A stretch of 64,000 nucleotides of DNA from Bacteroidota bacterium (lineage in GTDB: Bacteria > Bacteroidota > Bacteroidia > Chitinophagales > Chitinophagaceae), in the NCBI GenBank assembly GCA_023437225.1, contig JAEZGS010000010.1:9608-73607 (forward strand). Direction: 5' to 3'. Of the stretch, positions 40,570-61,231 are shown one piece after another; within the stretch, counting starts at the first letter, position 1; each line of letters begins with the position of its first letter. The notes below the pieces were generated by a model. That model saw nothing but the letters and a program-made list of their open reading frames with translations, was not told where the DNA came from and did not search any database. Both the position numbers and the translations under genes were made by a program.

Positions 40570-40597
40570 TTTGTTGCAGGCAGCTGCTCTAAATTTG
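40570..40597 (+). promoter_or_regulatory. weak Bacteroidota-type promoter candidate (TTTG ... TAAATTTG)
   Basis: TAAATTTG at 40590-40597 fits the TAnnTTTG -7 consensus. A TTTG sits at 40570-40573, but the 16-nt gap is shorter than usual. It lies 39 nt upstream of the GH5-GH26 start. Confidence 0.2.
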
Positions 40598-40635
40598 GGG
40601 ACAATTCAAATTGTGTCTACAACAAACTTGCTTCC

Positions 40636-42999: not shown

Positions 43000-43009
43000 A
43001 CTTATAACG

Positions 43010-44401: not shown

Positions 44402-44434
44402 GAGAAATGGAAACATGAAACGCGAAACACGAAA
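44402..44434. repeat. degenerate 7-nt periodic GAAA array (GAGAAA TGGAAA CATGAAA CGCGAAA CACGAAA)
   Basis: Read directly. It begins 1 nt after the symporter stop and ends 25 nt before the GH130 start. Confidence 0.5.
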
Positions 44435-44459
44435 TATTTAGAATTACGAATTATAAATT

Positions 44460-46880: not shown

Positions 46881-46887
46881 ATGCTAT

Positions 46888-49197
46888 ATGAAAAAGGCCC
46901 TGGTTCAATTATTCGTTGGTTTAATCCTATTTACGATGGGGACAGCAAAAGTTGCGCATGCGCAAAAAACTAATCCTGCAACAGAAGCGAAGATCAAAGC
47001 GCTGGTGCAGAAAATGACACTTGAAGAAAAGGTTGGTCAGATGGCGCAGGTTGCGATCGATCAGCTCGGATCACCGAATTATGCCACCAAAACATTCAAT
47101 CTTGACCCGAAGAAGATGGAAGAGATCTTGGTGAAGTACAAGGTAGGTTCAATTTTAAATACTCCTCCGGGCATACTGTTGGACGCTAAGCAATGGAACG
47201 AAGTAGTAAACAAGATCCATGAATTCTCACAGCAGAACAGGCTTAAAATCCCTGTTATATATGGTCTTGACCAGGTGCATGGTGCAAGCTATGTGGGTGG
47301 TTTCACTTCATTTCCTCAGGAGATCGGCCAGGCCGCAACCTGGAATCGCGAGTTGGTTCGTGAAGGCGCTTCAATCGCTGCGTATGAAAGTCGCGCTGCG
47401 AATGTGCCATGGAGTTTTGCTCCTGTATTGGACCTCGGCATGAATCCAACATGGCCACGTATCTGGGAAAGTTTCGGCGAAGATTCCTATCTGGTGGGTG
47501 AGATGGGAGTGCAGTTTGTGAAAGGAATGCAGGAGCCGCTCGGAAGCAAAGAAAAAATATCTGTCAGCCTGAAACATTACCTCGGTTATTCAGATCCTAA
47601 GTTCAGTAAGGACCGTACTAACGCATGGATACCCGAACATTATCTTCGTGAGTATCATCTTCCTCCATTTGAAGCCGCTATTAAAGCAGGTGCAAGAAAT
47701 GTGATGGTGAACTCGGCATTGGTGAATGGAATACCGGGACATATCAACAAACAATTTCTTACTGATATCCTCAAGAAAGAACTTGGGTTCACAGGTTTCG
47801 TAGTAACTGACTGGCAGGACGTTGACAACATACACAAGCGTGATCGTATCGCAAAAGACAACAAGGAAGCGGTGATGCTTTGTATCAACGCAGGCATTGA
47901 TATGTCAATGATCCCATACAACTATAAAGAATTTTGCGACAACCTTGTTGCACTCGTTAAAGAAGGAAAGGTTACCCAGGCACGAATTGATGATGCAGTA
48001 ACAAGAATATTGCGTGTGAAGTTTGAGCTTGATCTTTTCAATACTCCGCTCACCTCACTGGATCAATATCCAAAATTTGGCGGTGCTGAATTTACCAGGG
48101 CTGCGTATAATACCGCCGCTGAATCCATTACGTTATTGAAGAACGAAAAAAATGTACTTCCGCTTAAGAGTAATTCAAAGATCCTGGTTGTTGGACCGAA
48201 TGCAAATTCCATGCGTCCGTTAAATGGTGGCTGGACGTACACATGGCAGGGTGATCGTACCGATGAGTTCACTGCACAATACAATACTATCCTGGAAGCA
48301 ATTGAGAAAAAGTTTGGCAAGACTAACGTAACTCATGTTGAGGGCGTTTCCTATAACATGAAAGGTAAGTATCATGAAGATAAAGTTGTGGATATTGAGG
48401 CAGCGGTGAAAGCCGCGGCTGCTGTAGATTTCGTGGTACTTTGTCTTGGGGAGAACAGTTATACTGAAACACCTGGCAACCTCAACGAGATGAATCTTTC
48501 CGATAACCAGGTGGCGTTGGCAAAAGCGATGGTGAAGGCAGGTAAGCCAATTATCCTGGTATTAAACGAAGGACGCCCGCGCATCATTAGTCAGTTTGAA
48601 CCCGGAATTTCTGCCATCTTGAATATATATCTGCCGGGTAATTTCGGAGCTGATGCACTTGCCGACATACTTGCCGGCGATGTGAACCCGAGTGGTAAAC
48701 TTCCTATTACATACCCACGCTATGCCAATTCATTGACACCTTATATTCATAAGTATTCTGATCAGATCGCTAACCCGCAGGGTGCATACGATTATACTGC
48801 CGATTTCAATCCTCAATATCATTTTGGATTTGGACTGTCGTATACAACATTTGAATACAGCGATCTGAAAGTTGATAAGAAATCAATTGAACCCAATGGC
48901 AAAGTGAATGTCAGCGTTACGGTTAAGAATTCCGGAAACGTAGAAGGAAAAGAAGTTGTTCAGCTATTTATCGGGGATGTACATGCGTCGCTTTCACCAG
49001 ACGTAAAACGATTGAGAGGATTTGAAAAAATATTTCTGAAGCCGGGAGAAAGTAAACAGGTAACGTTTGCTGTTGCTGCGAAGGATCTTGCCTTCATTAA
49101 TCTTCAGAATAAAAGGCAATTGGAAGCTGGTGATTTCAAAGTTGATATTGATAAGCTGACTGCCACCTTCTCAGTTACAAAAACAATAGTGTTTTAA
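46888..49197 (+). CDS. GH3 beta-glucosidase (BglX-like)
   Basis: 769 aa with a signal peptide. Blocks KHYLGYS and GFVVTDW (nucleophile Asp), and a C-terminal Fn3-like domain. Confidence 0.9.
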   Translation: MKKALVQLFVGLILFTMGTAKVAHAQKTNPATEAKIKALVQKMTLEEKVGQMAQVAIDQLGSPNYATKTFNLDPKKMEEILVKYKVGSILNTPPGILLDAKQWNEVVNKIHEFSQQNRLKIPVIYGLDQVHGASYVGGFTSFPQEIGQAATWNRELVREGASIAAYESRAANVPWSFAPVLDLGMNPTWPRIWESFGEDSYLVGEMGVQFVKGMQEPLGSKEKISVSLKHYLGYSDPKFSKDRTNAWIPEHYLREYHLPPFEAAIKAGARNVMVNSALVNGIPGHINKQFLTDILKKELGFTGFVVTDWQDVDNIHKRDRIAKDNKEAVMLCINAGIDMSMIPYNYKEFCDNLVALVKEGKVTQARIDDAVTRILRVKFELDLFNTPLTSLDQYPKFGGAEFTRAAYNTAAESITLLKNEKNVLPLKSNSKILVVGPNANSMRPLNGGWTYTWQGDRTDEFTAQYNTILEAIEKKFGKTNVTHVEGVSYNMKGKYHEDKVVDIEAAVKAAAAVDFVVLCLGENSYTETPGNLNEMNLSDNQVALAKAMVKAGKPIILVLNEGRPRIISQFEPGISAILNIYLPGNFGADALADILAGDVNPSGKLPITYPRYANSLTPYIHKYSDQIANPQGAYDYTADFNPQYHFGFGLSYTTFEYSDLKVDKKSIEPNGKVNVSVTVKNSGNVEGKEVVQLFIGDVHASLSPDVKRLRGFEKIFLKPGESKQVTFAVAAKDLAFINLQNKRQLEAGDFKVDIDKLTATFSVTKTIVF

Positions 49198-49218
49198 TGC
49201 AGGTTTCAAAATAATGTT

Positions 49219-51204
49219 ATGAAAGTATTGGTAATAGCGCTTGCGTTCATTGTAACGATAACGGCTGACGGCTTTGCCCAAAGCAGAAAAGCGTTCGAAC
49301 TGCGGTCACCTGATGGTAAGATCGTTGTTAACGTGACTGCTGGCGAAACAATGAGCTGGGCGGTAAGACATGAACAGACGCAAGTGCTGTTGCCTTCGCT
49401 GATTTCCATGCGACTTGCTGGCGGCGAACAATTGGGTAAAGATGTGCGCGTGGTCACTGCGAAACGCAACACTGTAAACGCAAGATTTCAAACGCCTGTT
49501 TATAAAAAGAAAGAAGTAATTGATCACTACAACGAACTGGTGTTGAAGCTGAAAGGCAATTACGGACTGGTGTTCAGGGCATATAACGATGGAGTTGCGT
49601 ATAGGTTTCAACTAGATCGTCCCGCGAAAGTGACAATTGCGGATGAGCAGGCAGAGTTTAATTTGCCGGGTGATCAACATGCCTTCATTCCATATGTCCG
49701 TGATCTTAGAAATCCCGTAGATCAGTTCGTCACATCGTTTGAGGCGCTTTATGATGAAGCACCTTTGTCGAAGCGTCAAAAAGATTCGCTGGCATTCCTT
49801 CCGCTGCTTATATCTCTTGATGACCATAAGAAAGTGGTCATCCTTGAAGCTGATGTGGAAGATTACCCGGGAATGCACGTAGGTATCAATGAGCAGAAAA
49901 CAAATTCTATCAAAGGAGTTTTTGCACCCGTTGCCCTGGAAGAAAAGACCGGAGGTTATAACAACATCAATCTGATCGTAACCCGTCGGGCGGATCATAT
50001 TGCTGTTGTGAATGGCAGTAGAAGTCTGCCCTGGAGAGCAATTATAATAAGCATCGAAGACAAACAACTTGCGAATAATGATATGGTTCAAAAGCTTTCT
50101 TCGCCAACGCGGATCCAGGATGTTAGTTGGATAAAGCCTGGAAAGGTAGCGTGGGACTGGTGGAACGATTGGAACATTTCGCATGTCGGTTTCAAAGCTG
50201 GCATCAACACAGAAACCTATAAGCATTATATTGATTTTGCCGCAGAGAATAAACTTGAGTATATCATCATGGATGAAGGCTGGAGTGAAAGTGGAAACCT
50301 GATGAAAGTATCGCCTGTAATAGATCTGCAGGAGATCATTCGTTACGGGAAGGAAAAAAATGTTGACGTCATTTTATGGGCAACATGGTATGCATTGATC
50401 CGGCAAATGGATGAGATCTTTGGAAAATATGGGGGCATGGGTGTGAAAGGATTTAAGGTAGACTTTTTTGACCGGGACGATCAGAAAGTTGTTGCTTCGA
50501 CATATGAAATTGCCAGCAAAGCTGCAGATCATAAGTTACTCATAGATTTCCACGGCATATACAAACCAACGGGATTGCAAAGGGTATATCCGAACATCAT
50601 CAACTTCGAGGGTGTGAAAGGATTGGAAAACAACAAGTGGACGCCCAATGATGACGTTCCGCGTTATGACGTTACTATTCCTTTCATCAGGATGATTGCA
50701 GGACCGATGGACTATACTCCCGGAGGAATGAGAAACGCGAACAAGTGGAATTTCCGGCCGGTGCATTCCAACCCGATGACGCAGGGCACGCGCGCACACC
50801 AGGTGGCCATGTATGTTGTATTTGAAGCCCCACTACAAATGCTGGCAGACAATCCAACGATATATCGTAAGGAACAGGAGACTACAACTTTCATTTCGGG
50901 CATCCCTACAGTGTTTGATGAAACTGTTGCACTAGACGGTAAAGTCGGAGAGTATGTGGCGATTGCACGGAAAAAAGATAAAACCTGGTATATCGGCGCG
51001 ATGACCAATTGGGACGGCAGGGAAATAGATATAGATTTCTCTTTCCTTGGTGATGGCAATTTTGAAGCAGAGATATTTCGTGATGGAATCAATGCTGACC
51101 GTGAAGCAACGGATTATGTTCGCGAAGTTGTGCCGGTGAATAAGAACTCAAAGATTAAAGTTAAGATGTCGTCCGGCGGCGGATGGGCGGCAGTGGTGAG
51201 GTAG
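49219..51204 (+). CDS. GH97 glycoside hydrolase (alpha-galactosidase or alpha-glucosidase)
   Basis: 661 aa with a signal peptide. GH97 blocks IIMDEGW and KGFKVDFFDRDDQ. Confidence 0.85.
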   Translation: MKVLVIALAFIVTITADGFAQSRKAFELRSPDGKIVVNVTAGETMSWAVRHEQTQVLLPSLISMRLAGGEQLGKDVRVVTAKRNTVNARFQTPVYKKKEVIDHYNELVLKLKGNYGLVFRAYNDGVAYRFQLDRPAKVTIADEQAEFNLPGDQHAFIPYVRDLRNPVDQFVTSFEALYDEAPLSKRQKDSLAFLPLLISLDDHKKVVILEADVEDYPGMHVGINEQKTNSIKGVFAPVALEEKTGGYNNINLIVTRRADHIAVVNGSRSLPWRAIIISIEDKQLANNDMVQKLSSPTRIQDVSWIKPGKVAWDWWNDWNISHVGFKAGINTETYKHYIDFAAENKLEYIIMDEGWSESGNLMKVSPVIDLQEIIRYGKEKNVDVILWATWYALIRQMDEIFGKYGGMGVKGFKVDFFDRDDQKVVASTYEIASKAADHKLLIDFHGIYKPTGLQRVYPNIINFEGVKGLENNKWTPNDDVPRYDVTIPFIRMIAGPMDYTPGGMRNANKWNFRPVHSNPMTQGTRAHQVAMYVVFEAPLQMLADNPTIYRKEQETTTFISGIPTVFDETVALDGKVGEYVAIARKKDKTWYIGAMTNWDGREIDIDFSFLGDGNFEAEIFRDGINADREATDYVREVVPVNKNSKIKVKMSSGGGWAAVVR

Positions 51205-51207
51205 AAA

Positions 51208-51248
51208 TGGGAAATGGAAAATGGAAAATGGGAAATGGGAAATGGAAA
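51208..51248. repeat. tandem heptamer array TGGGAAA-(TGGAAAA)2-(TGGGAAA)2-TGGAAA
   Basis: Read directly. It starts 4 nt after the GH97 stop (TAG 51202-51204) and ends 39 nt before the next start (51288). Confidence 0.85.
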
Positions 51249-51287
51249 GCGGGCAATGTACTATTTTGCGGCGGCAAACTTTGATGA

Positions 51288-51674
51288 ATGAAGTATACTC
51301 AATGGATCGGTATTGTTGCTGCGATAATTATGGTTGCTGCTTGTTTTATGCCCTGGACGTATTATCCTGATATCGACCAGACCTTCAATGGATTTTATTC
51401 TTACCAGAATGTTTATGGCCGCCCGGGTAAAGCAATTACGGTGCTTGCAATCATCTGCATTATTTTCTTTCTTATCCCGCGCATTTGGGCCAAGCGATGG
51501 AATATTTTCTTCGGCGTAATTACACTTACCTATGTTTTAAAGACATTCATTCTTTTCAGCGGCTGCTACCGCGGTATTTGCCCTACCAAACTTTACGGTG
51601 TATGGGTGACATTGGTCGCCGCAATAGTCGTCTTATTAGGAGTATTGCTACCAACAGGCAGGACGGATAAGTGA
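51288..51674 (+). CDS. integral membrane protein, unknown function
   Basis: 128 aa with 4 TM. No motif recognised. Confidence 0.5.
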   Translation: MKYTQWIGIVAAIIMVAACFMPWTYYPDIDQTFNGFYSYQNVYGRPGKAITVLAIICIIFFLIPRIWAKRWNIFFGVITLTYVLKTFILFSGCYRGICPTKLYGVWVTLVAAIVVLLGVLLPTGRTDK

Positions 51675-51692
51675 GCCGACAATAGGGGAGAG

Positions 51693-52850
51693 TTAGGAAT
51701 AATTTGCCATTCCAAAAGCCTTATTCCTGATTCTGCTAAAGTTGATTCGCTTCATTTCCTGGTATACCTCCGTGGCTACTGTCTTTGCCCGAATCATGCT
51801 GCTGTCCCTTAGCCCCGACTTAATGATTATCCGTGAACCGACCTTTGCATAGGATCGGGCCTCATCAAGCCATACCGTCTTGATTCTTTGGCAGATAGGA
51901 TTTACCGATTTTTCTTTATTCAATGAGGAGGCGATCTCTGGCGGTACCGTTGTTCCTAATAATTGTTCACATAGGCGCAATCCGACGTATAGGCACTTGC
52001 TCAAATTAAGTTTGCGGGTCTCTAAATGAATTCTGTTCCAGTCAAGCCCGGGGTGCGAATTTACTAATGCATGGAAGTCGCAAATGTGCCGCATCTTCTT
52101 AAAGTAATTTCGCATTCCGTGATGCACCAGTATTGATAGAAAGAGATCTTCAGGATGTAACTGGCGAACCCGGGTCCCAAACGCGTTTTTCATTTCAGAA
52201 CGTTCCCACATTCTCTTCATATCAAGATCAACCTTATAATAGCTCTTCGCCAGGCGCCAATGAACATCCATTTCAACTGAATTTACCGTATCTACAAATT
52301 CAAGGGCATGATCGTGCACCATTAAGTGCGCGATGTTTCGCGGCGTATTTTCAAATTTGGGTGAGTATCCGATTTGCCTGAATATATCAATGGACCTCCT
52401 AACATCGTCTTCATGAATAATCACGTCCAGGTCGAGAAACGTTCTCAATGTTGTGTCAGGGTACATTACCGACAACGATGGGCCCTTGTAAGGAATAATC
52501 TCCAGGCCTGCGCCGGCGCAGTGGTTAACAGCCTCACGGAGATGTTGAAAATGCTTCTCATTTTTTTCTTTGCCTGTATCAAACATTGTTTCGACCGCCG
52601 TCCAGACATCATTGGGCACCAGCTTTTTGTGCTCCTGGAGCGAATGATGGAGAAAGGCCACAACACCATTGTTTTTTGCCGCGAGTAAAAGGTTGTTCCA
52701 ATTTTTGTGTCGCGATATTAATTCCTGCACTTCTACATGATCCGTCTGGGAAAGAAATTGTTTCTGGATGGAATACCTCAGCAGTTCATAGATCGATGTT
52801 GGCATAGAAATCGGGTTAAGCATGTTGAATATAGAAAAATCAGACGGCAA
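51693..52850 (-). CDS. pol-beta-fold nucleotidyltransferase, NTP_transf_5 (PF14907)-like
   Basis: 385 aa. KGPSLSVMYPDTTLRTFLDLDVIIHEDDVRRSIDIFRQIGY carries the G-S...D-x-D nucleotidyltransferase motif, followed by DVHWRL. The layout matches the 'uncharacterised nucleotidyltransferase' family as I remember it. The true start may be an internal Met (M10 or M16). Confidence 0.7.
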   Translation of the reverse strand: MPSDFSIFNMLNPISMPTSIYELLRYSIQKQFLSQTDHVEVQELISRHKNWNNLLLAAKNNGVVAFLHHSLQEHKKLVPNDVWTAVETMFDTGKEKNEKHFQHLREAVNHCAGAGLEIIPYKGPSLSVMYPDTTLRTFLDLDVIIHEDDVRRSIDIFRQIGYSPKFENTPRNIAHLMVHDHALEFVDTVNSVEMDVHWRLAKSYYKVDLDMKRMWERSEMKNAFGTRVRQLHPEDLFLSILVHHGMRNYFKKMRHICDFHALVNSHPGLDWNRIHLETRKLNLSKCLYVGLRLCEQLLGTTVPPEIASSLNKEKSVNPICQRIKTVWLDEARSYAKVGSRIIIKSGLRDSSMIRAKTVATEVYQEMKRINFSRIRNKAFGMANYS

Positions 52851-52937
52851 ATGAAATTCCCCTGGTTATTTTTCCAAATTCTAGAAGAATGACTAAACGT
52901 TTAATATATTCAACTGGTGATGAAATAATTGCTTTCC

Positions 52938-54731
52938 ATGAATTACAAGTTTCGTCCGGGTTTAATTGGCTATAACGTCTTTTTCTACCGGGTTCTTGGT
53001 GGACGTCTATTCGTTTATCTCATCCTGGGTGTTTTTGTAAGCCTGATGGATGGAATTGGGATATCCATGTTTATTCCCCTATTGCAATCTACAGTCAATG
53101 AAAACGGAAAGGTTGGCCAACAGAGTCAGTTTGACGGAATACTTCAGCATTTTGAGAGATTCGGCTTAGAACCATCGATAACCGTAATACTATCGATACT
53201 CGTGATAGTGTTTTGTCTAAAGGGCTTTGCAAAATTCCTGCAGGGCAAGTACCAGGTAATACTACGATATTATTTTTTCAAAAAGATAAGGAGCAACCTG
53301 ATAATGAATCTGAGAAACCTCAGCTATGAAGGTTTTATGCAATTGAACGTGGGTAGAATTCAGAATAATCTTGTGCTTGAGGTACAGCGCCTGTTTCAGA
53401 ACATGAATCATTATTTCAATGCGGCAAAGTCCGTAATGATGTTTCTTACTTATCTGCTTCTTGCCTTGCTTGCCAATTACCAGTTTGCGTTGTTCGTTAT
53501 TCTGGGCACAAGCATTTCGAATTTATTGTTTCGCCGGTTTCAGCATAAAACAATTAAAGTATCGAACGAAGTTTCAAAAACAGGTAACCTCTTCAACAGC
53601 TATCTTATACAAGCGATTCATTATTTCAAATACCTGAAAGCAACGGGGCAATTCAATAAATATTCTGAACAGATGTCCGGTGCGATGGACAAAAGTGAGG
53701 AGCTCAATAAGGAAATGGGTAATTATACCGCTATAGTAATGGGTATACGGGAGCCCACCGTAATCATTATTGTGGCTATCGTTATATATGTACAGGTAGT
53801 TTTGATGGGCTTCCAGTTTTCAGCAATTATGTTAGCCCTATTAATGCTGTTCCGGGCACTTACCTCACTTATGGCATTCATGAATGTGTGGCAATATTTC
53901 ATGCAGAACGTTGGTGCTATGACCTCGATCCATGAGCTGTCTTCTGAAATGCAGACGCTTGCTGAAAAGCAGCAGGGTGCTGAACCGGTTAACAGCATTC
54001 TTGAAGTGACTTTGGAAGGGGTGGGTTATGAAAGACAGGGAAAGCAAATCCTGAACAATGTAAACCTGGTAATCAAGCCTAACCACACAACCGGGATCAT
54101 TGGTGAAAGTGGTTCTGGAAAAACGACCGTTGCAAATATCATCGCAGGGTTAATATCGCCATCAGATGGAAAGGTGCTGATAAATGGTATTCCATCGTTC
54201 AAACTAAATCTCATGGAGTATAGATCGAAGATCGGATACATCTCTCAGGACCCCGCAATATTTGACGATACGATCTTTAACAATGTGACTTTTTTCGACG
54301 ACCCAACACCGGCAAATCTTAAGCGTTTTTTCGAAGTGGTCGAGGATGCGTCGTTGAGTGAATTCCTCGAGAAAATTGATGGCCATGAACAGGCTCTTCT
54401 GGGAATGAATGGCACATTGATTTCAGGTGGTCAGAAACAACGTATAGCTATTGCGAGAGAATTGTATAAGCGTTCAGACCTTCTGATCTTCGACGAGGCA
54501 ACTTCAGCGCTAGATGCCGAAACCGAAGCTGCAATAAGAGAAAGTTTGAAGAAGCTTCATGGAAGCTGTACGATACTTGTGATTTCGCATAGGTTATCAA
54601 ACATCCGTGATGCAGACCTGGTGTATATCATGGACGATGGAACTATAATAGAATCCGGCAGTCCGGAAGAGTTGATCACCTATTCAGCACTTTTTAAACG
54701 ATTGGTAGCTGTGCAGCAATTTCATAACTAA
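52938..54731 (+). CDS. ABC exporter, fused TMD-NBD half-transporter
   Basis: The track starts at TTG 52929; ATG is at 52938. Six N-terminal TM. Walker A GESGSGKTT, signature LISGGQKQRIAIAREL, Walker B LLIFDEATSALD, H-loop VISHRL. Confidence 0.9.
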   Translation: MNYKFRPGLIGYNVFFYRVLGGRLFVYLILGVFVSLMDGIGISMFIPLLQSTVNENGKVGQQSQFDGILQHFERFGLEPSITVILSILVIVFCLKGFAKFLQGKYQVILRYYFFKKIRSNLIMNLRNLSYEGFMQLNVGRIQNNLVLEVQRLFQNMNHYFNAAKSVMMFLTYLLLALLANYQFALFVILGTSISNLLFRRFQHKTIKVSNEVSKTGNLFNSYLIQAIHYFKYLKATGQFNKYSEQMSGAMDKSEELNKEMGNYTAIVMGIREPTVIIIVAIVIYVQVVLMGFQFSAIMLALLMLFRALTSLMAFMNVWQYFMQNVGAMTSIHELSSEMQTLAEKQQGAEPVNSILEVTLEGVGYERQGKQILNNVNLVIKPNHTTGIIGESGSGKTTVANIIAGLISPSDGKVLINGIPSFKLNLMEYRSKIGYISQDPAIFDDTIFNNVTFFDDPTPANLKRFFEVVEDASLSEFLEKIDGHEQALLGMNGTLISGGQKQRIAIARELYKRSDLLIFDEATSALDAETEAAIRESLKKLHGSCTILVISHRLSNIRDADLVYIMDDGTIIESGSPEELITYSALFKRLVAVQQFHN

Positions 54732-55819
54732 TCATGCTTTGTTTGTTTGCGTATGAATTCAAGTAAAGATTTGAAATGCTCTAGTCTGCGGTAATTCCCA
54801 CTGAAGCGATACCAGGGCATGTCGTTAAGAAAATAAACAGATCCATTCCGCCTGGTCGTACACCAATGCGGATGGATTGCATCAGGGAATTCATTTAAGA
54901 TACTTGCGCTGTCGAATTTCTCGTGTTCTTCAAACAGAGTTATTTGTTCTTCCTGACCGTCATTATTCAGATCGACAAGGATACCAAATTTTAAATTGGA
55001 GTATGGCTTTATTTCGCGTCCCAGAGTTCCCGATAGCTCAGCCATTGTTACATGAAACTTGGTATCGTGCTTATCAGATATCCAGGTGCCTTTCAATTGC
55101 TCGGAATTGAACAGTGTAGATTCGTAAAGCGCTTCCTTTCTAAGTCGGATTGGTTGCGGACTTCCAAATGCCGCTTGCGATGTGCTGTTATAATATATCT
55201 TATCATCCGCGATGAAAACTATTTCTTCATCGAGCTCCAGAAGCCTGACTACCGTAGTGGTTTTGCCTTTACGCTTTTGGCCAGCAAGAAGAAACCCGGT
55301 TCCATTCAAACTAAGACAACCCGCGTGGAGTTTTATCCATCCATTTGGAAGCTTGTCAGTCAACAATCCTCTAATAATGAAGACGGGATCATCAGTAAGT
55401 GCTTCCATTTTATTTTGGAAAAAAAGCAGGAAGGTATTTGATTCACGGTCCCATAAATACAATCGTGTTTGAAGAAGATCCCTGATGATAGTTATTTCAT
55501 CTTCTGTAACGAATCGCAATGCAGGTGTATCGCAATGTATTTGTATTAATTCCGAAGTACCAGGAAAATTCATTCCATGAAGGGGAAGCGGATCGGAGTA
55601 ATAGGCGTAAACCTGCGGCGAGCCGATGATGTTTGTCTCTTCAAAATGATGTGAGAGCATCCGACAACAACTTTCGATCGTTGCAGGGTTATTGGTATAA
55701 AGAGTGCACGGCGTTGCATCGAGGATCAAATGATGTATGGTCCAACTTCTGTGAAGTAAAGTTGAATCACTGCTCTTAAGTTGTACGAGGAGTTTATCAA
55801 AGATTTGCCTGCCTTTCAA
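54728..55819 (-). CDS. HprK C-terminal-domain-like P-loop protein (putative kinase) with unknown ~165-aa N-domain
   Basis: 363 aa. LHAGCLSLNGTGFLLAGQKRKGKTTTVVRLLELDEEIVFIADD follows the HPr-kinase-like pattern (LH..G.G.LL.G.sG.GKS...L......aDD). The P-loop lies at 55259-55285. Confidence 0.6.
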   Translation of the reverse strand: MKGRQIFDKLLVQLKSSDSTLLHRSWTIHHLILDATPCTLYTNNPATIESCCRMLSHHFEETNIIGSPQVYAYYSDPLPLHGMNFPGTSELIQIHCDTPALRFVTEDEITIIRDLLQTRLYLWDRESNTFLLFFQNKMEALTDDPVFIIRGLLTDKLPNGWIKLHAGCLSLNGTGFLLAGQKRKGKTTTVVRLLELDEEIVFIADDKIYYNSTSQAAFGSPQPIRLRKEALYESTLFNSEQLKGTWISDKHDTKFHVTMAELSGTLGREIKPYSNLKFGILVDLNNDGQEEQITLFEEHEKFDSASILNEFPDAIHPHWCTTRRNGSVYFLNDMPWYRFSGNYRRLEHFKSLLEFIRKQTKHD

Positions 55820-57177
55820 TTAGGTTGATTTTGATGTTTGATTGTAAGCCATGGTTCCGGGGTGCACGGATCCGTAAGTAGTTCGAAGCGTTCTTTGTTT
55901 TTATTCATAAGAGACTCGGCTGCAATAAGCCCGGCATGTGTTGCCCTGTCGGTGCCTGCCCTGGCGATGTTGTACAAATTATCATAGGCGGACAATTTTT
56001 TTAGGAGGGCGTTCTGGTTTTTGTTTTTAATATTATCGCTCCAGCTTGCAGCTGCATTTACCTGCGGAAAATTGAAGACCCGGTAACGTATGATCTTTGA
56101 AGGCTCAAACAAATTCAAGTGGTTGCATTGATCCAAAGTGAATGAGTATAACTTCTCCTCCGGATATAAAAACAATTCATCGTCACTCCTGAGGAAGTAC
56201 TCAATGCATAGACAGCACTTTCCAGGAGGAACCATATCACCCCCAAACATAGCGTAGTTAGTTATGCGGCCGATTTTCAAGCGGGGACAAGACACGTTTA
56301 ACCATGCATGCGGGAAGCGTGGCGATTCATCAATAAAAAGATATACCAATAATACACCCTGGGAGGACGATACTGGATTATTCGAACGATCATTAAAAAG
56401 CATCCTGCCAAGCGTTTCAGGCTGGATAGCGCTAATTAACGAAGAGACTTCAATGTGTGAGGAATTTCCATTTTTGTTCGTGATGACACCTGTGATAATA
56501 TTGTCTTTGGTGATCACACCAGTCAGTTGTACATCGGTTTCAATCTCGCCATTTAGTTTCCTTATCGAAGCTGCAAGTGTCTCAACGATTTGACCCGATC
56601 CAAGACGAGGGTGTCGCCATTCAGTTTGGCTGGCAACTCCAGATGTTGGTGTTTGCATTGGTATGGAAAGCATACGCCAGTCCTCGCCATTGAAACGTTC
56701 CTGGAAACCCTGGCTAAATATTTCAGTTATTTTTTTTCCGGCTGATCGATATCGATACTGCGCATAATTTGTTGGCTTGTAGAAAGCAATACGCGAATAA
56801 ATTTTATCTGCGAAACATGCTGCAAACAGCGGAAGGCTCATCCCCCTTGTTATGCCCTTGTATTGTGCACTTGATTCGTAAATATGGCCTTTGTAGAGAA
56901 TGCCAACACGATGATCGTATCTTACATAGTCTTTTCCCAGTATATCGCTCCAGAATTTGTTAACCTCGGGAATACGGGAATACAATTCCTTTCTTCCGAG
57001 GTCAACCCTGAAGCCATCTTCAACAACGCTTTGCATAAGACCACCTACCTGTGAAGACCTTTCGAAAATTACCGGCTTTATACCATTCTGTAATAAGCAT
57101 AAAGCAGCGGCAAGACCACCAGGTCCGGAACCAAGTATTACAACCGGCTTACCATCAATTTCAGGGTTCATCTCCAA
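55816..57177 (-). CDS. FAD/NAD(P)-binding oxidoreductase (amine-oxidase / phytoene-desaturase-like)
   Basis: 453 aa with an N-terminal Rossmann motif (VVILGSGPGGLAAALCLLQNGIKPVIFERSSQVGGL). 4-nt overlap with the downstream kinase-like gene. Confidence 0.8.
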   Translation of the reverse strand: MEMNPEIDGKPVVILGSGPGGLAAALCLLQNGIKPVIFERSSQVGGLMQSVVEDGFRVDLGRKELYSRIPEVNKFWSDILGKDYVRYDHRVGILYKGHIYESSAQYKGITRGMSLPLFAACFADKIYSRIAFYKPTNYAQYRYRSAGKKITEIFSQGFQERFNGEDWRMLSIPMQTPTSGVASQTEWRHPRLGSGQIVETLAASIRKLNGEIETDVQLTGVITKDNIITGVITNKNGNSSHIEVSSLISAIQPETLGRMLFNDRSNNPVSSSQGVLLVYLFIDESPRFPHAWLNVSCPRLKIGRITNYAMFGGDMVPPGKCCLCIEYFLRSDDELFLYPEEKLYSFTLDQCNHLNLFEPSKIIRYRVFNFPQVNAAASWSDNIKNKNQNALLKKLSAYDNLYNIARAGTDRATHAGLIAAESLMNKNKERFELLTDPCTPEPWLTIKHQNQPN

Positions 57178-57299
57178 GTTTCAGGTATTTTGACTGATTG
57201 TATTTTTTTTTATATTGTTATATCCTTATCCGGTAAAATCCTTCGTGCATCACCTCGCGGCTTCCTGTAACTCTCGATAATAATATAGAAATAAAAACG

Positions 57300-58943
57300 A
57301 TGAAACCGAAAATCCGGCTGGGAATTTTTGCATGGGAACCGCACATGTCACAATGGATGCAACTAGTGGTCAAGATGCTTGCGAAATGCGATTATGCGGA
57401 GCTGATCGTTCTTATTCATAGCGCACCAGGTTTTAATAGAACAGGTTTGATTCAACTGGCAGGGATTCAAAAGTCGCGCATTATGTATGCAGTTCAGCAG
57501 CGGTTGGAAAGGAGGATATTTGAAGTTAAAAACCAAAAGGAAGATGAATCTGCGAGCGCTTATGAAAGGATAGCGATAAACGCCGGAATGACAAACGGAA
57601 AAGTTTCGTTTGAACAAGATGCTGTCCAACGCATTAGGAATTACGAATTGGATGTACTGATAAGTCTGACATCGTGCGACTTTGATTGTGAAGTGAAGAA
57701 AGCAGTTAGAATCGGGATCTGGAGCTATGTTGCCGGTGAGAAGACTGCATTTGCTGGCGGTCCTGCACATGCCTGGAAATTTTCATCAGCCATTGAAGAT
57801 GAAGAATTCTTGTTGCCTGTTATTCCCGAAGAAAGGAAGAATGTACTTGAGCCGAATATCAATAAGGTGCTAATAAATTATTACTGGCGGTCCCTGCATT
57901 TTTTGCCCGTCAGACTAAAGGAGCTTTATGATAATGGTGATATGTCGATTGTCGAAGCTAAGCACAAATACGGCCTTCATATACATTCACACTCCTGGCA
58001 ATGGCGTCACAGCTATCTCCAGGTTTCGCCAATTATCCTGCGGTATTTATTACGTTGGAGTAAGTTGAAATTCGATCAGTTGTTATTTTCTAATCAATGG
58101 GTTTTGCTTTTTGGTATTTCAGGCAAACAGGGTAATATTTTTCAAACCGTCTCGCAGCTTAAACCACTTATTCCTCCTCCTGATCGTTTCTGGGCTGACC
58201 CTTGCGTAGTGTGTAATGATGAACGCTATTATGTGTTTGTTGAAGAATACGTGCACAAAAACAAGAAAGGACATATAAGCGTAATCGAAATTGATGGTGA
58301 TGGAAAGATCATTGACACCCGGCCAGTACTTGAAAAACCCTATCATCTTTCCTTCCCCTTCGTGTTTAAACATTCCGGTAAGTATTATATGATTCCGGAA
58401 ACCGCGGCAAGTCGTCGCATCGATATCTATGAATCTACATGCTTTCCCTTTGAATGGAAACTATTTAAAAATTTGATGGACGATGTAAATGCTGTAGATA
58501 CCATTATACATAAGAAGGATGGCAGATTTTGGCTGTTCACTACCATATGTTCAGTCAGTGAACACCTCAATCGGGATGAACTTTACCTGTATTACAGTGA
58601 TGATCTTGATGGAAGCTGGATCCCACATCCTAATAACCCGGTTGTAACAGACGTGCGCACTTCAAGGTCTGCAGGTGGCATGTTTGAGTATGGTGGCAAG
58701 CTTTACAGGCCAAGCCAGGATTGTTTGAAGCGATATGGACACCGGGTGCTGTTCAATGAAGTGATTGTCATCAATGAACAGGAATACCAGGAAAAAACGG
58801 TTACCTCGATAGATCCACATTGGGATAAAAAAATTGTGGCGACGCACACGTTCTCTCATCAAAATAAGCTTACAGTTATTGATGCACAAATGAGGAATAG
58901 AAAAAAGGGTACATCCAAAAATGTCCCGGCAGTCGACGCATAA
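57300..58943 (+). CDS. formyltransferase-N-like (degenerate) + GH43-like/GINT1-N-like beta-propeller protein
   Basis: 547 aa. N-part: ELDVLISLTSCDF..GIWSYVAGEKTAFAGGPAHAW. C-part: FWADPCVV..YHLSFPFVFKHSGKYYMIPETAASRRIDIYES..FPFEW..RPSQDCLKRYG. Family assignment is from memory only. Confidence 0.55.
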   Translation: MKPKIRLGIFAWEPHMSQWMQLVVKMLAKCDYAELIVLIHSAPGFNRTGLIQLAGIQKSRIMYAVQQRLERRIFEVKNQKEDESASAYERIAINAGMTNGKVSFEQDAVQRIRNYELDVLISLTSCDFDCEVKKAVRIGIWSYVAGEKTAFAGGPAHAWKFSSAIEDEEFLLPVIPEERKNVLEPNINKVLINYYWRSLHFLPVRLKELYDNGDMSIVEAKHKYGLHIHSHSWQWRHSYLQVSPIILRYLLRWSKLKFDQLLFSNQWVLLFGISGKQGNIFQTVSQLKPLIPPPDRFWADPCVVCNDERYYVFVEEYVHKNKKGHISVIEIDGDGKIIDTRPVLEKPYHLSFPFVFKHSGKYYMIPETAASRRIDIYESTCFPFEWKLFKNLMDDVNAVDTIIHKKDGRFWLFTTICSVSEHLNRDELYLYYSDDLDGSWIPHPNNPVVTDVRTSRSAGGMFEYGGKLYRPSQDCLKRYGHRVLFNEVIVINEQEYQEKTVTSIDPHWDKKIVATHTFSHQNKLTVIDAQMRNRKKGTSKNVPAVDA

Positions 58944-59027
58944 GAGGCGCCGCTTATAAAGTTGGTCCATCAAAAATTCTTCGTATCTTAAAACCAACCG
59001 TACCCGCATCAACCAAAACTGATTGCC

Positions 59028-60599
59028 ATGGGTGCCAAAAAACCGTCGGATCAACCAACGACCGAAGACTTCAAAGCAGTTGCAGCTCCATATCTCGCGG
59101 CCGTTCAACAACATTTCAGGGAAGAAGGTTCATTCCAGGTTTCAGACGTCATACTAGACGTTGAAGAGGATGGTAAGAAGCAGCAGCTCCAATTTGTGAA
59201 TCTCGTTCAGGAAGGTGGGGGAGTGCTTGGTGTTGCGCTGGTGGGCTACACCTACATACTTGAGGAAATGGGTGTGCGTTTTTTAAAGCTTGCGGGCACA
59301 AGCGCGGGTGCTATCAATACAATGCTGATGGCATGCATCAATCGCAAAGAAGATAAAAAATCTACAACGGTACTCGACATTCTTGCAAAGAAAAATTTAT
59401 TTGAGTTCGTCGACGGCCATTGGCTTGCAAGAGGAGTGATAAAATTGTTTATAACCAACAGGAAGTCGCTCCAGCGAATTTTTAACTGGATTGGCGGCAT
59501 ACTTGCATTAGTGGTAGTTCTGTATCTTCTTAACTTTTACCTGCTGGGCCGTAATGCTTTCTCCGCATTCACCGAAGGCGTACTTGTAATAACTTCAATA
59601 CTTTTCTTACTTGTTATAACCGGCGCTTTTTTTGTCCGGCATCTTGTGAAACGATTTGATCGCAATGGTTATGGGATCAATCCTGGTACTGATTTTACGC
59701 GATGGATGTCTGATATATTAAAAGATCCTTCTCATGGCCCGGTTATTCAAAACCTGAATGATCTCAACAAACACCTCGAAACTGTTCCTGATTTTTATCA
59801 TCGCTATGGTGAGGATGTTGCCGACCTGAAAAAGCCCCCCAAGGGCGAGCAATTCATCACACTTATTGCGTCGGATATTACAACACAAATGAAAGTAGAG
59901 TTCCCGAAAATGTGGAAGTTATACTGGAGTGATGCAACCTATGTTAACCCGGCGGACTTTGTTCGTGCATCGATGTCAATACCTGTTTTTTTTGAAGTAT
60001 TCCGCATCGACAATATCCCGGTGCGACTTGTAGCAAAAGAGTGGGAAAGGCAGCTTAATATGACAGATACAACCAAGATCCCAAGGAGGGCAATGTTTGT
60101 GGATGGTGGCATCATCTCAAATTTTCCCATAAATATTTTCTTCAACCCAAATCTTGAAAAACCCCGGCTGCCAACATTCGGTGTCATGCTGGAGGACGTT
60201 GTGTTCCAGCCTAAAGAAAAGTTCACAGGCCTATTGAATTTTTTTGGTTCCATTTTTAATACCGTGCGCTTTCACTACGATAAGGATTTTCTAATCAGGC
60301 ATAACGATTTTGAAAAAACGATTGGTCGGATCGATGTTCAGAAATTCAATTGGCTGAACTTCAATATTAGTGGAGAAGAAAAACTTGGCTTGTTCAAAAA
60401 AGGAGTGGAGGCAGCTACTGAATTCCTCCTTGGAACCGATGCGGTACTGGCGATCGACGGTAATGAGATCGATACCACGTTACCGAAGCGACAGCCGTTC
60501 AACTGGCAGCAATATCGTGATAATCGACCTGAAGTTATGAGGAAGATCCGCCAGGCAACTCAATCACAGGCAGATAACCTTTCAACCAAAACAGTATGA
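59028..60599 (+). CDS. patatin-like phospholipase with two inserted TM helices
   Basis: 523 aa. Oxyanion QEGGGVLGVALVG, lipase GxSxG (GTSAG), catalytic Asp FVDGGIISNFP. Hydrophobic helices IGGILALVVVLYLLNFYLL and VLVITSILFLLVITGAFFV lie between the Ser and Asp motifs. Confidence 0.85.
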   Translation: MGAKKPSDQPTTEDFKAVAAPYLAAVQQHFREEGSFQVSDVILDVEEDGKKQQLQFVNLVQEGGGVLGVALVGYTYILEEMGVRFLKLAGTSAGAINTMLMACINRKEDKKSTTVLDILAKKNLFEFVDGHWLARGVIKLFITNRKSLQRIFNWIGGILALVVVLYLLNFYLLGRNAFSAFTEGVLVITSILFLLVITGAFFVRHLVKRFDRNGYGINPGTDFTRWMSDILKDPSHGPVIQNLNDLNKHLETVPDFYHRYGEDVADLKKPPKGEQFITLIASDITTQMKVEFPKMWKLYWSDATYVNPADFVRASMSIPVFFEVFRIDNIPVRLVAKEWERQLNMTDTTKIPRRAMFVDGGIISNFPINIFFNPNLEKPRLPTFGVMLEDVVFQPKEKFTGLLNFFGSIFNTVRFHYDKDFLIRHNDFEKTIGRIDVQKFNWLNFNISGEEKLGLFKKGVEAATEFLLGTDAVLAIDGNEIDTTLPKRQPFNWQQYRDNRPEVMRKIRQATQSQADNLSTKTV

Positions 60600-61231
60600 C
60601 AACACAGCAGCTTTTACTCGCCATATTAATAATAAGTGTCGTACTGACAATTATTTTTGGACGCGCACTGCTAAGATCGGATAATAATTTTTACTACCGG
60701 AACGGAAGGGCAATGCGTGCATGGGATATCCTTTTTGCAATCGACAAAAGCAAGTTCAATTACCGGTTACAAAACATGTCCGAAGAAACGCTTTCCCTCT
60801 TACGAAAGTGGATATTGCTTGACGTGCGCTTTGCGCCGCTTGCCCATTTATCAGTGGCACTGTTACTTTATTTTTCTTCGCTTGCATATGCCCGCGAAGG
60901 TTACAGGTTATTATTTGATGTGCTCATCGGATTGCAGGCGGTTGCGTTGATATCGCATATTATAACCGACATAATGCTGTCAGGCAGCTTAAAGAGTTTG
61001 GAAATGCAGCAGTCGATGAGGTTTTTCAATGCCAATGTGTTTATGAAACTTGCTTTTCCAATGGCAGGATGCTTTGTTTCTTTCGCCACAGCCATACTCG
61101 TTTGGTTCAGGTACCTCAATAGTTTTGATCTGCCCCTCGCATCTCTGTTATTCATTGCACCTGTTGTACTGATCGTGGTTACAATAAACATTTCGAAGCG
61201 ATTTAAATCGCAACCAGTAAAAACAAACTGA
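60596..61231 (+). CDS. 5-TM membrane protein, unknown function, coupled to the patatin gene
   Basis: 211 aa. Its ATG overlaps the patatin stop (ATGA at 60596-60599). No motif recognised. Confidence 0.5.
   Translation: MTTQQLLLAILIISVVLTIIFGRALLRSDNNFYYRNGRAMRAWDILFAIDKSKFNYRLQNMSEETLSLLRKWILLDVRFAPLAHLSVALLLYFSSLAYAREGYRLLFDVLIGLQAVALISHIITDIMLSGSLKSLEMQQSMRFFNANVFMKLAFPMAGCFVSFATAILVWFRYLNSFDLPLASLLFIAPVVLIVVTINISKRFKSQPVKTN

Follow-up and report, generated by a model that had tools for sequence, protein, structure and literature searches.

A membrane-centred gene island of a Bacteroidota bacterium unites a lasso-decoration-type kinase, nucleotidyltransferase and exporter with enzymes of surface-sugar loci

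In lasso peptide clusters of the paeninodin and pseudomycoidin type, the C-terminal Ser of the peptide receives a phosphate from an HprK-like kinase, attachment of hexose to this phosphate requires a still uncharacterised PsmN-type nucleotidyltransferase, and the set is completed by an ABC exporter; lasso-peptide tailoring and export constitute the only characterised function of a set comprising an HprK-like kinase, a PF14907 protein and an ABC exporter (PMC8498205, PMC6993621). The original prediction for the DNA studied here likened a block of four genes to this set, correctly according to these reports, and added that it was not a described system. The latter is too strong, as cassettes of PqqD, PF14907 and HprK-related kinase genes, with or without lasso genes and placed amid glycosyltransferases, are visible in annotated plasmids, and their NCBIfam models HprK_rel_A/B are curated, albeit uncharacterised.

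The window, a 64-kb stretch of a Bacteroidota contig that was analysed as a whole, contains the four open reading frames (4/4) at the predicted places within 51693-57177. They had been taken as the natural unit; conversely, our results place them as the left half of a membrane-centred island of ~10 kb (51288-61231), and homologues of the block's flavoenzyme recur with a gene located outside the block, encoding a GINT1_N-like protein. Gene packing is tight: there are three overlaps of 4 nt, and the gaps between divergent genes are short. The genes run in four transcription directions across these 10 kb; as judged from the gene arrangement, co-transcription appears evident only for the flavoenzyme and kinase genes and for the patatin and 211-aa protein genes. 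The flanks, a mannan-utilisation operon and a T9SS protein, are unrelated, and a slight G+C dip extends across the island. The genes are intact. A second strain keeps their order, and its comparison with the window indicates purifying selection on all of them (pN/pS 0.10-0.36); furthermore, Logan contig L001 has the same sequence as the window. The island encodes no glycosyltransferase, lacks Wzx/Wzy and any sugar-nucleotide enzyme, and is therefore not itself a polysaccharide locus.

The nucleotidyltransferase gene (51693-52850, minus strand, likely ATG start at 52823) encodes, as predicted, a PF14907 (NTP_transf_5) protein of the PsmN-like family (E 2.6e-44; 152 bits, the cut-off being 31.2) with the motif G123-P-S125 ... 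D140-L-D142, and its pN/pS between the two strains is 0.36. No close relative was found among 5.8 billion proteins, and distant ones are carried on plasmids of Halopiger, Crinalium, Paenibacillus and Azospirillum. In 8 non-redundant plasmid neighbourhoods of such relatives, from distant organisms, an HprK-like kinase was present in 3, an ABC exporter in 4, PqqD in 4, and AsnB-like together with B2 genes in 3; the recurrence of kinase, PF14907 gene and exporter makes it unlikely that this trio is a chance neighbourhood. The closest relatives (Halopiger, Paenibacillus and Thalassobaculum) adjoin AsnB/B2/PqqD genes. About half of the PF14907 relatives are embedded in exopolysaccharide-type loci: that of Azospirillum has Wza/Wzc/Wzy neighbours and no lasso genes, that of Crinalium lies with two GT-A genes and FkbM, directly downstream of an exporter gene that it overlaps by 4 nt, and those of Halopiger and Thalassobaculum have GT4 and a flippase or several GT4s nearby. 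On a Bacillus thuringiensis plasmid, HprK-like and PF14907 genes are accompanied by a carrier protein, a methyltransferase, a CYTH protein and a luciferase-like monooxygenase. Thus, distant PF14907 relatives repeatedly adjoin HprK-like kinases, ABC exporters and PqqD, often amid glycosyltransferases.

Divergently transcribed from this gene is that of an ABC exporter half-transporter composed of a membrane domain and an ATPase (52929-54731, plus strand, likely ATG start at 52938; pN/pS 0.12 between the strains). The divergence was as predicted; its gap is not fixed at ~85 bp, since it amounts to 78-114 bp depending on whether the likely ATG starts are used. The ATPase matches ABC_tran (E 6.7e-30), and NCBIfam alignments to MsbA, HepA, PglK and NHLP exporters, which span the full length but stay sub-threshold, cover the membrane domain, supporting the proposed architecture, while the anticipated Pfam ABC_membrane match was absent. 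The protein carries no peptidase domain, its membrane domain found no match in a search of plasmids, and its label as McjD-type is not specifically supported, a generic ABCB/MsbA-like half-transporter being the better description. The divergent intergenic region (52824-52937), which presumably holds both promoters, contains no credible small ORF and no Rfam match, and shows 0/114 differences between strains.

The exporter gene overlaps tail-to-tail by 4 nt (54728-54731), a feature absent from the original prediction, with that of a two-domain P-loop protein of the PEPCK/HprK fold (54728-55819, minus strand, 363 aa). The predicted 4-nt overlap of the latter with the upstream flavoenzyme ORF (55816-55819) is present, with the sequence AATTGA and a TTG start for the kinase; this translational coupling implies co-expression. 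Public gene calls shorten the kinase to a start at M54; nonetheless, the TTG start is backed by homology from residue 7, by high pLDDT for residues 1-53, and by the comparison of the two strains, in which the codons of these residues show 2 synonymous and 0 non-synonymous changes (pN/pS 0.10 for the whole gene). The HprK-like assignment did not obtain HMM support, as the matches are sub-threshold (PF07475, E 0.0019, 18 bits against 33; TIGR00679, 20.6 bits against 240) and HprK_rel_A/B gave none at E<=0.01. It holds at the superfamily level, as judged from the motifs LHAG164-167, GQKRKGKTT179-188 and ADD204-206, from alignment columns invariant in 35 distant relatives (R150, G185, K186, D206 and P221), and from a confident AF2 model (pLDDT 90.1). 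The P-loop domain shares Walker A, histidine and DD with HPr kinase/phosphorylase and PEP carboxykinase, and the best Foldseek matches are PEPCK (E 1e-8), on which both domains superpose; conversely, it has no HPr/PTS context, no sequence similarity to PEPCK, and a TM of only ~0.5. The N-terminal domain of 165 aa had been put forward as a possible RRE or pathway core. We reject this: in the model the domain is β-rich (α-β-β-α-β7-α), it is conserved family-wide, and it and the P-loop domain jointly match the PEPCK fold with its two domains.

Among 1.84 billion representatives, only two relatives of the kinase fall below 1e-30, and these are its only full-length homologues: P0002 and P0003 (MYD36223.1, from a Dehalococcoidia MAG), with 28-34% identity over residues 7-357, both domains included. 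Each is a fusion of FGE-like, cytidylyltransferase-like and HprK-like domains, so that the kinase is also joined to a nucleotidyltransferase; unlike that of the island, this belongs to the PF01467 superfamily, an extra FGE/EgtB-like domain is present, and the neighbours are a sulfotransferase and a HAD phosphatase (in one case also a radical-SAM protein), instead of a flavoenzyme or exporter. A further relative, P0005, lies beside an ABC ATPase, a sulfotransferase, FGE, HAD and an APS kinase. None of these nearest relatives is in a RiPP context.

The flavoenzyme (55816-57177, minus strand, likely ATG start at 57171) is an FAD-dependent oxidoreductase that falls into the PRK07208 family (sub-threshold match to NCBIfam PRK07208.1-4, E 1.4e-53) and whose AF2 model (pLDDT 90.6) ties in Foldseek between protoporphyrinogen oxidase (PPOX) and eukaryote-type UDP-galactopyranose mutase (UGM), with a TM of ~0.7. 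Its family is large (>350 relatives at 35-45% identity) and has many differing partners; in 50 genomes the top neighbours were GFO/IDH/MocA with hexapeptide acetyltransferase (17 loci), Wzy (14), DegT (14), GT4 (12), GT2 (12), AsnB (9) and a formyltransferase-deacetylase, and two of the loci, L007 and L009, have the classic make-up of a polysaccharide cluster. Residence of this family in surface-polysaccharide loci led us to discard the flavoenzyme as the hidden RiPP core that had been suggested. Across a divergent region (57172-57299; no credible small ORF, no real Rfam match, 0/128 differences between strains) begins the operon of the GINT1_N-like gene (57300-58943, plus strand), encoding 547 aa with an uncharacterised N-terminal half and a C-terminal GINT1_N domain, a GH43-like propeller (PF24793, E 1.3e-40). 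More than 450 metagenomic relatives were found, glycan-locus members being 31-35% identical, and in 80 metagenomic loci the neighbours included GT4 (30), AsnB (17), Wzx (13) and UDP-Glc dehydrogenase (9), as well as ATP-grasp, DegT and epimerase genes. Homologues of the flavoenzyme and GINT1_N-like genes adjoin each other in L012, L013, L079 and Lutimonas, and one locus (L128) holds a GINT1_N-like gene together with a PF14907 gene.

The remaining genes encode membrane proteins. At 59028-60599 (plus strand) lies a patatin-like phospholipase (PF01734, E 1.4e-20) with intact catalytic motifs (GGGxxG, GTSAG and DGG), two membrane helices inserted at 147-208, and no PADLOC match. Its gene is coupled by a 4-nt overlap to that of a 211-aa protein (60596-61231, plus strand) with ~5 membrane helices predicted by hydropathy and no match in Pfam, NCBIfam, PADLOC or PDB. 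At the left edge, a 128-aa protein (51288-51674, plus strand), also encoded on L001, has four predicted membrane helices and no significant Pfam or NCBIfam match; its membership in the island is uncertain.

As predicted, no core enzyme or precursor was identified in the window. Pfam searches, which covered every large ORF around the block and the larger ones of the window, revealed no cyclase, B2 or PqqD; phmmer with AsnB, B2 and PqqD queries found none in the six-frame translation of the 64 kb, with limited sensitivity for PqqD; no core gene lies in the 1.6 kb past the right end; and no intergenic gap contains a credible precursor micro-ORF. The four-gene combination was conserved in no other genome examined. 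Among 131 loci with relatives of the flavoenzyme or the GINT1_N-like protein, none contained the kinase, PqqD or B2, and one contained a distant PF14907 gene.

Compared with the paeninodin (pade) and pseudomycoidin (psm) clusters, the island shares, all within 4 kb, an HprK-fold kinase with H, Walker A and DD motifs (cf. PadeK/PsmK), a PF14907 nucleotidyltransferase with G-S...DxD (PsmN) and an ABC half-transporter (PsmD), and the nucleotidyltransferase gene adjoins that of the exporter as psmN adjoins psmD. In contrast, precursor, macrolactam synthetase, B1 (PqqD) and B2 are missing, the kinase is coupled to a flavoenzyme, the host belongs to Bacteroidota, and similarity to Firmicute members is very low (31 bits for the B. 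thuringiensis kinase, 30 bits for the nucleotidyltransferase). A cassette of Crinalium epipsammum plasmid pCRI9333.04 likewise brings a kinase, a nucleotidyltransferase and an ABC exporter together and has no lasso cyclase, alongside an oxidoreductase and glycan-type genes; its nucleotidyltransferase, directly adjoined by the exporter, is among the best matches of the window's nucleotidyltransferase (tblastn E 4e-12, 78% query coverage), whereas its PqqD chaperone, two GT-A, FkbM methyltransferase and second nucleotidyltransferase lack counterparts in the window. With O-antigen/EPS/CPS loci, the island shares two resident families, paired in several genomes; unlike the island, these loci have glycosyltransferases, flippase/polymerase and sugar-nucleotide genes; neither the kinase nor the patatin-like lipase is present in them, and PF14907 occurs in a single one.

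Four explanations were weighed. We tentatively favour, at somewhat below even chances, that the island decorates and exports a non-peptide envelope molecule, a surface glycan or glycolipid. According to the original prediction, orthologous blocks lying consistently in exopolysaccharide loci would indicate a known envelope context; this was observed at the level of families, since relatives of the flavoenzyme and of the GINT1_N-like protein lie in such loci, as do about half of those of PF14907. The observation favours the second of the two original readings, in which the substrate is an envelope component other than a peptide. Against this stand the near-orphan status of the kinase and nucleotidyltransferase in a combination conserved nowhere, the peptide nature of the enzyme pair's only experimentally known substrate, the AsnB/B2/PqqD genes beside the closest PF14907 relatives, and the island's lack of glycan-building genes of its own; moreover, the fusions and sulfotransferase/HAD neighbours of the kinase relatives indicate a small-molecule pathway as much. 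A rather unlikely explanation is a mosaic of independent, laterally acquired genes, in which a lasso-like accessory remnant lies by two glycan-locus genes and a lipase with no shared function: the lack of conserved synteny, the four transcription directions, the unrelated flanks with the G+C dip and the varied partners of flavoenzyme relatives agree with it, whereas the tight packing, the coupled expression of flavoenzyme and kinase, the recurrent pairing of PF14907 with kinase and exporter, and purifying selection on all genes do not.

It is unlikely that a RiPP-type peptide is tailored and exported here, its precursor and core being encoded elsewhere in the genome or of an unrecognised kind. 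The characterised trio serves a lasso peptide, PqqD and AsnB-like plus B2 genes accompany PF14907 on plasmids, and HprK-related proteins also occur in other peptide cassettes, relatives giving weak ScmC matches; conversely, the window and the adjacent 1.6 kb lack core genes and credible small ORFs, the modelled N-domain does not appear RRE-like, the kinase is coupled to a glycan-locus-family gene whose loci are devoid of PqqD/B2 (0/131), and its nearest relatives lie outside RiPP contexts. Even less probable is a diffusible non-peptide small molecule, such as a metabolite that carries a phosphate or nucleotidyl group, is oxidised by the flavoenzyme and leaves through the ABC transporter. The fusions, the P0005 neighbourhood, the carrier protein and monooxygenase of the B. 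thuringiensis plasmid, and the resemblance of the whole kinase to PEPCK, a small-molecule kinase, point in this direction, but scaffold builders (NRPS/PKS, terpene synthases or ligases) are missing from the island, the families of the flavoenzyme and the GINT1_N-like protein indicate glycans, and the PEPCK likeness is modest in a superfamily that also has protein/peptide kinases.

If an envelope molecule is indeed the substrate, the PPOX/UGM-like flavoenzyme and the GINT1_N-like protein would prepare or remodel its sugar moiety, and the kinase would phosphorylate an acceptor hydroxyl with ATP. By analogy with PsmK and PsmN acting on the C-terminal Ser of pseudomycoidin, the nucleotidyltransferase might add a hexose or nucleotidyl group to that phosphate, yielding a phosphodiester-linked substituent. 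The MsbA-like half-transporter could carry the product over the inner membrane, while its lipid part may be acted on, or anchored, by the patatin-like lipase with its membrane helices and by the small polytopic proteins, two in number. Seen so far in one lineage only, the island unites a kinase, nucleotidyltransferase and exporter of the lasso-decoration type with enzymes of surface-sugar loci.

All four genes grouped in the original prediction (51693-57177) were found in the region, and the natural unit is a larger island of eight proteins spanning 51288-61231. Besides the nucleotidyltransferase, ABC exporter, kinase-like protein and flavoenzyme of that block, the island encodes a GINT1_N-like protein, a patatin-like lipase with intact catalytic motifs and two inserted membrane helices, a 5-helix membrane protein (211 aa) coupled to the patatin-like gene, and a 4-helix membrane protein. 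In the lipase (59028-60599), about 120 residues are inserted in the catalytic domain, with the two predicted helices at residues 147-208, and 3/3 catalytic motifs are kept despite this insertion. The gene order was unchanged in a related strain with 98.9% nucleotide identity, and the comparison of the two strains yielded pN/pS values of 0.10-0.36 for every gene; the island genes are functional. Scans of the island for Rfam families and for σ70 promoters and terminators returned nothing above chance.

The left flank corresponds to a same-strand mannan-utilization operon (39015-51204), with genes for a SASA esterase, a GH26 mannanase, an MFS sugar transporter, a GH130 mannoside phosphorylase, an N-acylglucosamine 2-epimerase-like protein, and GH3 and GH97 enzymes; no SusC/SusD-like protein was identified among the ORFs scanned in this interval. 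The right flank encodes a T9SS-sorted protein, an aminotransferase and a GHMP kinase. Within the 83-bp gap separating the GH97 gene from the first island gene lies a (GAAATGG)x6 tandem repeat with a 21-nt super-period (51204-51258), at which an independent Logan assembly of the same organism breaks, ending at window position 51216. Farther away, a 720-aa ORF (15373-17535) displays an unusual fusion of a cyclophilin-type prolyl isomerase, a BNR_2 sialidase-like propeller and a glutathione peroxidase.

The nucleotidyltransferase (51693-52850, minus strand) matched PF14907 (NTP_transf_5) with E 2.6e-44 and 152.1 bits against a gathering threshold of 31.2, over model positions 3-249 of 249, and carries the polymerase-β-type catalytic motif G123-P-S125...D140-L-D142; this full-length match and the motif bear out the family assignment first made from the sequence alone. 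Neither for this protein nor for the kinase did a word-indexed search of 5.8 billion clustered proteins return a close relative (self-matches only), and sequence searches against the PDB yielded nothing useful for the nucleotidyltransferase, the GINT1_N-like protein or the 211-aa protein. The divergent ABC half-transporter (52929-54731, plus strand) has a clear ATPase domain by Pfam; the Pfam ABC_membrane model gave no match, and its membrane domain is covered by sub-threshold, full-length NCBIfam alignments to MsbA, HepA, PglK and NHLP-type exporters. No peptidase domain was found in it. The McjD-type label proposed earlier was discarded, since generic ABCB/MsbA proteins dominate the PDB and NCBIfam rankings and a search of the membrane domain against plasmids gave no match; the exporter is a generic one. 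The exporter and kinase-like genes converge, with stop codons overlapping by 4 nt (54728-54731), which leaves no space for a terminator between the two opposed transcription units.

The kinase-like protein (54728-55819, minus strand; 363 aa) belongs to the HprK/PEPCK superfamily, and its TTG start sits inside AATTGA, a sequence that also contains the stop codon of the flavoenzyme gene. Public gene calls place the start at Met54 (310 aa); we consider the 363-aa ORF to be the real one, because homology to the two nearest relatives begins at residue 7, the first 53 residues were modeled by AlphaFold with pLDDT 86-96, and the 2 changes that separate the two strains in the corresponding codons are both synonymous. 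Profile matches were weak, with E 0.0019 and 18.2 bits against PF07475 (cut-off 33.3) and 20.6 bits against the HprK/P model TIGR00679 (curated cut-off 240), and no match at E<=0.01 was obtained to HprK_rel_A or HprK_rel_B (TIGR04352/TIGR04355, cut-off 200 bits). Across 35 aligned relatives, R150, G185, K186, D206 and P221 are invariant, and H165 and T187 nearly so; this H, Walker-A and DD signature is that of HprK/P and of PsmK, the kinase of the pseudomycoidin lasso cluster, in which the DD pair is essential (PMC6993621). The AlphaFold model built on the same alignment (pLDDT 90.1, pTM 0.89) found its best PDB matches in ATP- and GTP-dependent PEP carboxykinases (E 1e-8, TM about 0.5), and the structural alignment spans about 410 columns, that is, both kinase domains. 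With scores far below the cut-offs, the protein is not HprK/P, HprK_rel_A or HprK_rel_B: the HprK-like call stands at the superfamily level, where motifs and fold agree, and falls at the family level, where all curated cut-offs were missed. The N-terminal 160 residues, suspected of a hidden RiPP recognition or core function, constitute a β-rich part of the family fold; their element order (α-β-β-α-β7-α) differs from the PqqD-like β3-α3 winged helix, and as the whole protein aligns to PEPCK, an RRE in this domain was rejected, and the suspected core function is likewise unsupported.

When 1.84 billion representative proteins were searched in full with HMMER, 92 kinase relatives were recovered at E<=0.001, with two besides the protein itself below 1e-30; weaker relatives match the curated model HprK_rel_B, and some match HprK/P itself. 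A metagenome scan using the kinase-clade alignment as query produced 600 pattern matches and 0 true relatives. The two nearest relatives, P0002 (L002:3871-6270) and P0003 (L003:10001-12301; MYD36223.1, from a Dehalococcoidia MAG), combine an FGE/EgtB-like and a cytidylyltransferase-like domain with an HprK-fold kinase in a single polypeptide, and both adjoin sulfotransferase and HAD phosphatase genes. Downstream of the fusion gene on L003 lies a polymerase-β-type nucleotidyltransferase-like ORF. A further relative is accompanied by an ABC ATPase, a sulfotransferase, an FGE, a HAD protein and an APS kinase. The two fusion loci look like a separate uncharacterized pathway. To our knowledge, HprK-related kinases acting outside carbon-catabolite control have barely been studied.

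The flavoenzyme (55816-57177, minus strand) falls in the PRK07208 group of NCBIfam, and over 350 relatives share 35-45% identity with it. Its model (pLDDT 90.6) resembles protoporphyrinogen oxidase and eukaryote-type UDP-galactopyranose mutase about equally (TM about 0.7 each). In 50 genomes harboring flavoenzyme relatives, spanning Verrucomicrobiota, Acidobacteriota, Pseudomonadota and Bacteroidota, the commonest neighbors were a GFO/IDH/MocA plus hexapeptide acetyltransferase, Wzy, DegT aminotransferase, GT4, GT2, an AsnB-type amidotransferase and a formyltransferase-deacetylase, and the two best-matching loci with enough readable flank are textbook polysaccharide clusters. This family context speaks against the flavoenzyme as a hidden RiPP core, a role suggested for it before, and that candidate was dismissed. 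Homologs of the kinase, PF14907, patatin-like and 211-aa proteins were found near flavoenzyme relatives in 0/50 of these genomes.

Across a 128-bp divergent gap from the flavoenzyme gene, the GINT1_N-like protein (57300-58943; PF24793, E 1e-40) belongs to a polysaccharide-locus family, whose neighbors in 80 metagenomic loci include GT4 (30), AsnB (17), Wzx (13) and UDP-glucose dehydrogenase (9), as well as ATP-grasp, DegT and epimerases. A formyltransferase-like identity for its N-terminal half was unsupported (hhalign E 0.86). A flavoenzyme homolog adjoins a GINT1_N-like gene in two Pyrinomonadaceae genomes and one metagenomic contig, and the two genes are 6 kb apart in Lutimonas; part of the four-gene block thus has a recurrent partner lying outside it, which argues against the block as a unit.

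The reported absence of peptide machinery was upheld in the window. Pfam searches covering every sizeable ORF between 39 kb and the right end of the window, plus ten larger ORFs elsewhere in it, revealed no asparagine-synthetase-like, transglutaminase-like or PqqD protein, and neither a leader peptidase (B2) nor an RRE/PqqD B1 protein was found among the island proteins with Pfam and NCBIfam. Queries taken from lasso-type plasmid clusters were also run with phmmer against the six-frame translation of the 64-kb window: the AsnB-like query gave no match at E<=1, and one B2 and two PqqD queries gave none, with limited sensitivity for such short domains. The intergenic gaps measure 18-128 bp, and the ORFs in them (12-51 codons) are low-complexity or start-poor, none being convincing as a precursor (whose C-terminal residue is Ser in the phosphorylated lasso class), in agreement with the first inspection.

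The distant relatives of PF14907 recovered by a tblastn search of annotated plasmids lie in eight non-redundant contexts. In Crinalium epipsammum plasmid pCRI9333.04 (NC_019735.1, 5553-24479), an ABC exporter gene overlaps by 4 nt the gene directly after it, which encodes a nucleotidyltransferase whose match extends over most of the window's protein. The cluster also contains a second PF14907 gene, an HprK_rel_A-like "HPr kinase" and a lasso-type PqqD, together with FkbM, an oxidoreductase and two GT-A genes. It lacks a lasso cyclase and B2 and is a core-less version of the "lasso accessory" set, from a strain that is both cultured and sequenced. Genes for SMP-30 and a TPR protein are likewise present there. 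In the haloarchaeon Halopiger xanaduensis (pHALXA01), the neighbors of PF14907 and of a weak HprK-like ORF are AsnB, B2, PqqD and an ABC exporter, with GT4, flippase and sulfatase genes adjoining. On a Thalassobaculum plasmid, PF14907 and an ABC exporter are encoded convergently and share a 4-nt overlap; genes for PqqD, B2, a sulfotransferase and an AsnB-related protein lie alongside, with five or six glycosyltransferases around. These two lasso-type sets amid glycosyltransferases may make peptides or may act on glycans. Paenibacillus cellulosilyticus carries a lasso-type set of PF14907, AsnB, PqqD, B2 and ABC exporter, and in Azospirillum PF14907 lies within a Wza/Wzc/Wzy exopolysaccharide locus without lasso genes. 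Bacillus thuringiensis pST7-2 (CP016196.1, 25689-44432) has two HprK-like and two PF14907 genes neighbored by a phosphopantetheine carrier protein, a methyltransferase, a CYTH protein, a decarboxylase, a SAM synthetase and a luciferase-like monooxygenase, which is a non-lasso, carrier-protein setting for the pair. The surroundings in Rhizobium and Gemmatirosa were uninformative; an apparent nucleotidyltransferase-flavoenzyme pair on Rhizobium plasmids was discounted, as the adjoining 453-aa NAD(P)-binding protein shares the dinucleotide-binding motif alone with the window's flavoenzyme. Overall, an HprK-like gene was adjacent in 3/8 contexts, and an ABC exporter within 5 kb, PqqD and glycan genes were each present in 4/8, so that the trio of the window reflects a recurring association and not a chance neighborhood. 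The trio recurs with and without peptide machinery, often amid glycan genes.

With lasso clusters of the paeninodin/pseudomycoidin type, the island shares the HprK-like kinase, the PsmN-type nucleotidyltransferase and an ABC exporter, and the proposed likeness to their accessory set therefore holds. Those clusters also encode a macrolactam synthetase, B2 and an RRE/PqqD B1 protein; because none of these three defining features was found, the island is not a lasso cluster. Surface-polysaccharide loci, in turn, combine glycosyltransferases and sugar-nucleotide enzymes with a Wzx/Wzy or ABC-2 export pair; these have 0 counterparts among the eight island proteins; lacking transferases, flippase and polymerase, the island is not itself such a locus, although the flavoenzyme and GINT1_N-like families are habitual there (50 genomes and 80 metagenomic loci, respectively). 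An embedding in polysaccharide loci is thus true of these families and not of the island. A defense role combining patatin and nucleotidyltransferase, as in CBASS, was rejected, as PADLOC models did not match the nucleotidyltransferase, patatin or kinase, and the ABC protein gave generic ATPase matches. The island is a new arrangement of known families, in which a core-less, PqqD-less trio is joined to glycan-locus enzymes.

For the function of the pair, PsmN provided the sole experimental data point found for the PF14907 family: in pseudomycoidin, the C-terminal Ser is phosphorylated by the kinase, and attachment of one or two hexoses to that phosphate requires the PF14907-type enzyme (PMC6993621; review PMC8498205). 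By analogy, the kinase/nucleotidyltransferase pair of the island would place a phosphate on its acceptor and then an add-on linked through that phosphate, and the MsbA-like transporter would export the product. We tentatively favor a role of the block in the decoration and export of an envelope glycan or glycolipid. As acceptor, such a molecule is more likely than a peptide, because translation of the kinase is coupled to that of a glycan-locus flavoenzyme, another glycan-locus protein opens the next operon, the remaining island members are membrane proteins, and peptide machinery is absent. A narrower version, in which the kinase and PF14907 form a portable two-enzyme "phosphate plus add-on" module that was separated from peptide machinery and recruited with the flavoenzyme and the MsbA-like exporter for a phosphodiester-linked substituent on an envelope glycan or lipid, is conceivable but rather doubtful.

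That the genes form no single system, being a mosaic of neighbors, seems unlikely, as the trio recurs on plasmids. The full combination is confined to one uncultured Bacteroidota lineage (two strains), two key members are near-orphans, and it does not have the conservation that would define a system. A peptide pathway with its core encoded elsewhere in the genome would fit the lasso-type accessory set; given the glycan-locus partners, we regard it as distinctly unlikely. A diffusible small-molecule pathway, suggested by the FGE/cytidylyltransferase-like fusions nearest to the kinase, appears more improbable still, the flavoenzyme and GINT1_N-like protein belonging to glycan-locus families.

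The value of the locus is limited because its combination is known from that lineage only. Within these bounds, its four to eight genes make a compact test case, in which a member of the large PF14907 family and its HprK-fold partner are intact and under selection without a RiPP core. This setting, with the glycan-type enzymes and the lipid-type exporter to which the pair is joined, argues that the pair serves decoration in general and is not an accessory specific to lasso peptides. If true, the portable-module reading would provide the first non-peptide substrate of the kinase/PF14907 pair. Were the substrate a peptide, the locus would point to a RiPP class without known core enzymes; were it an envelope glycan or lipid, the surface modifications of Bacteroidota would gain a new kind, linked through phosphate.
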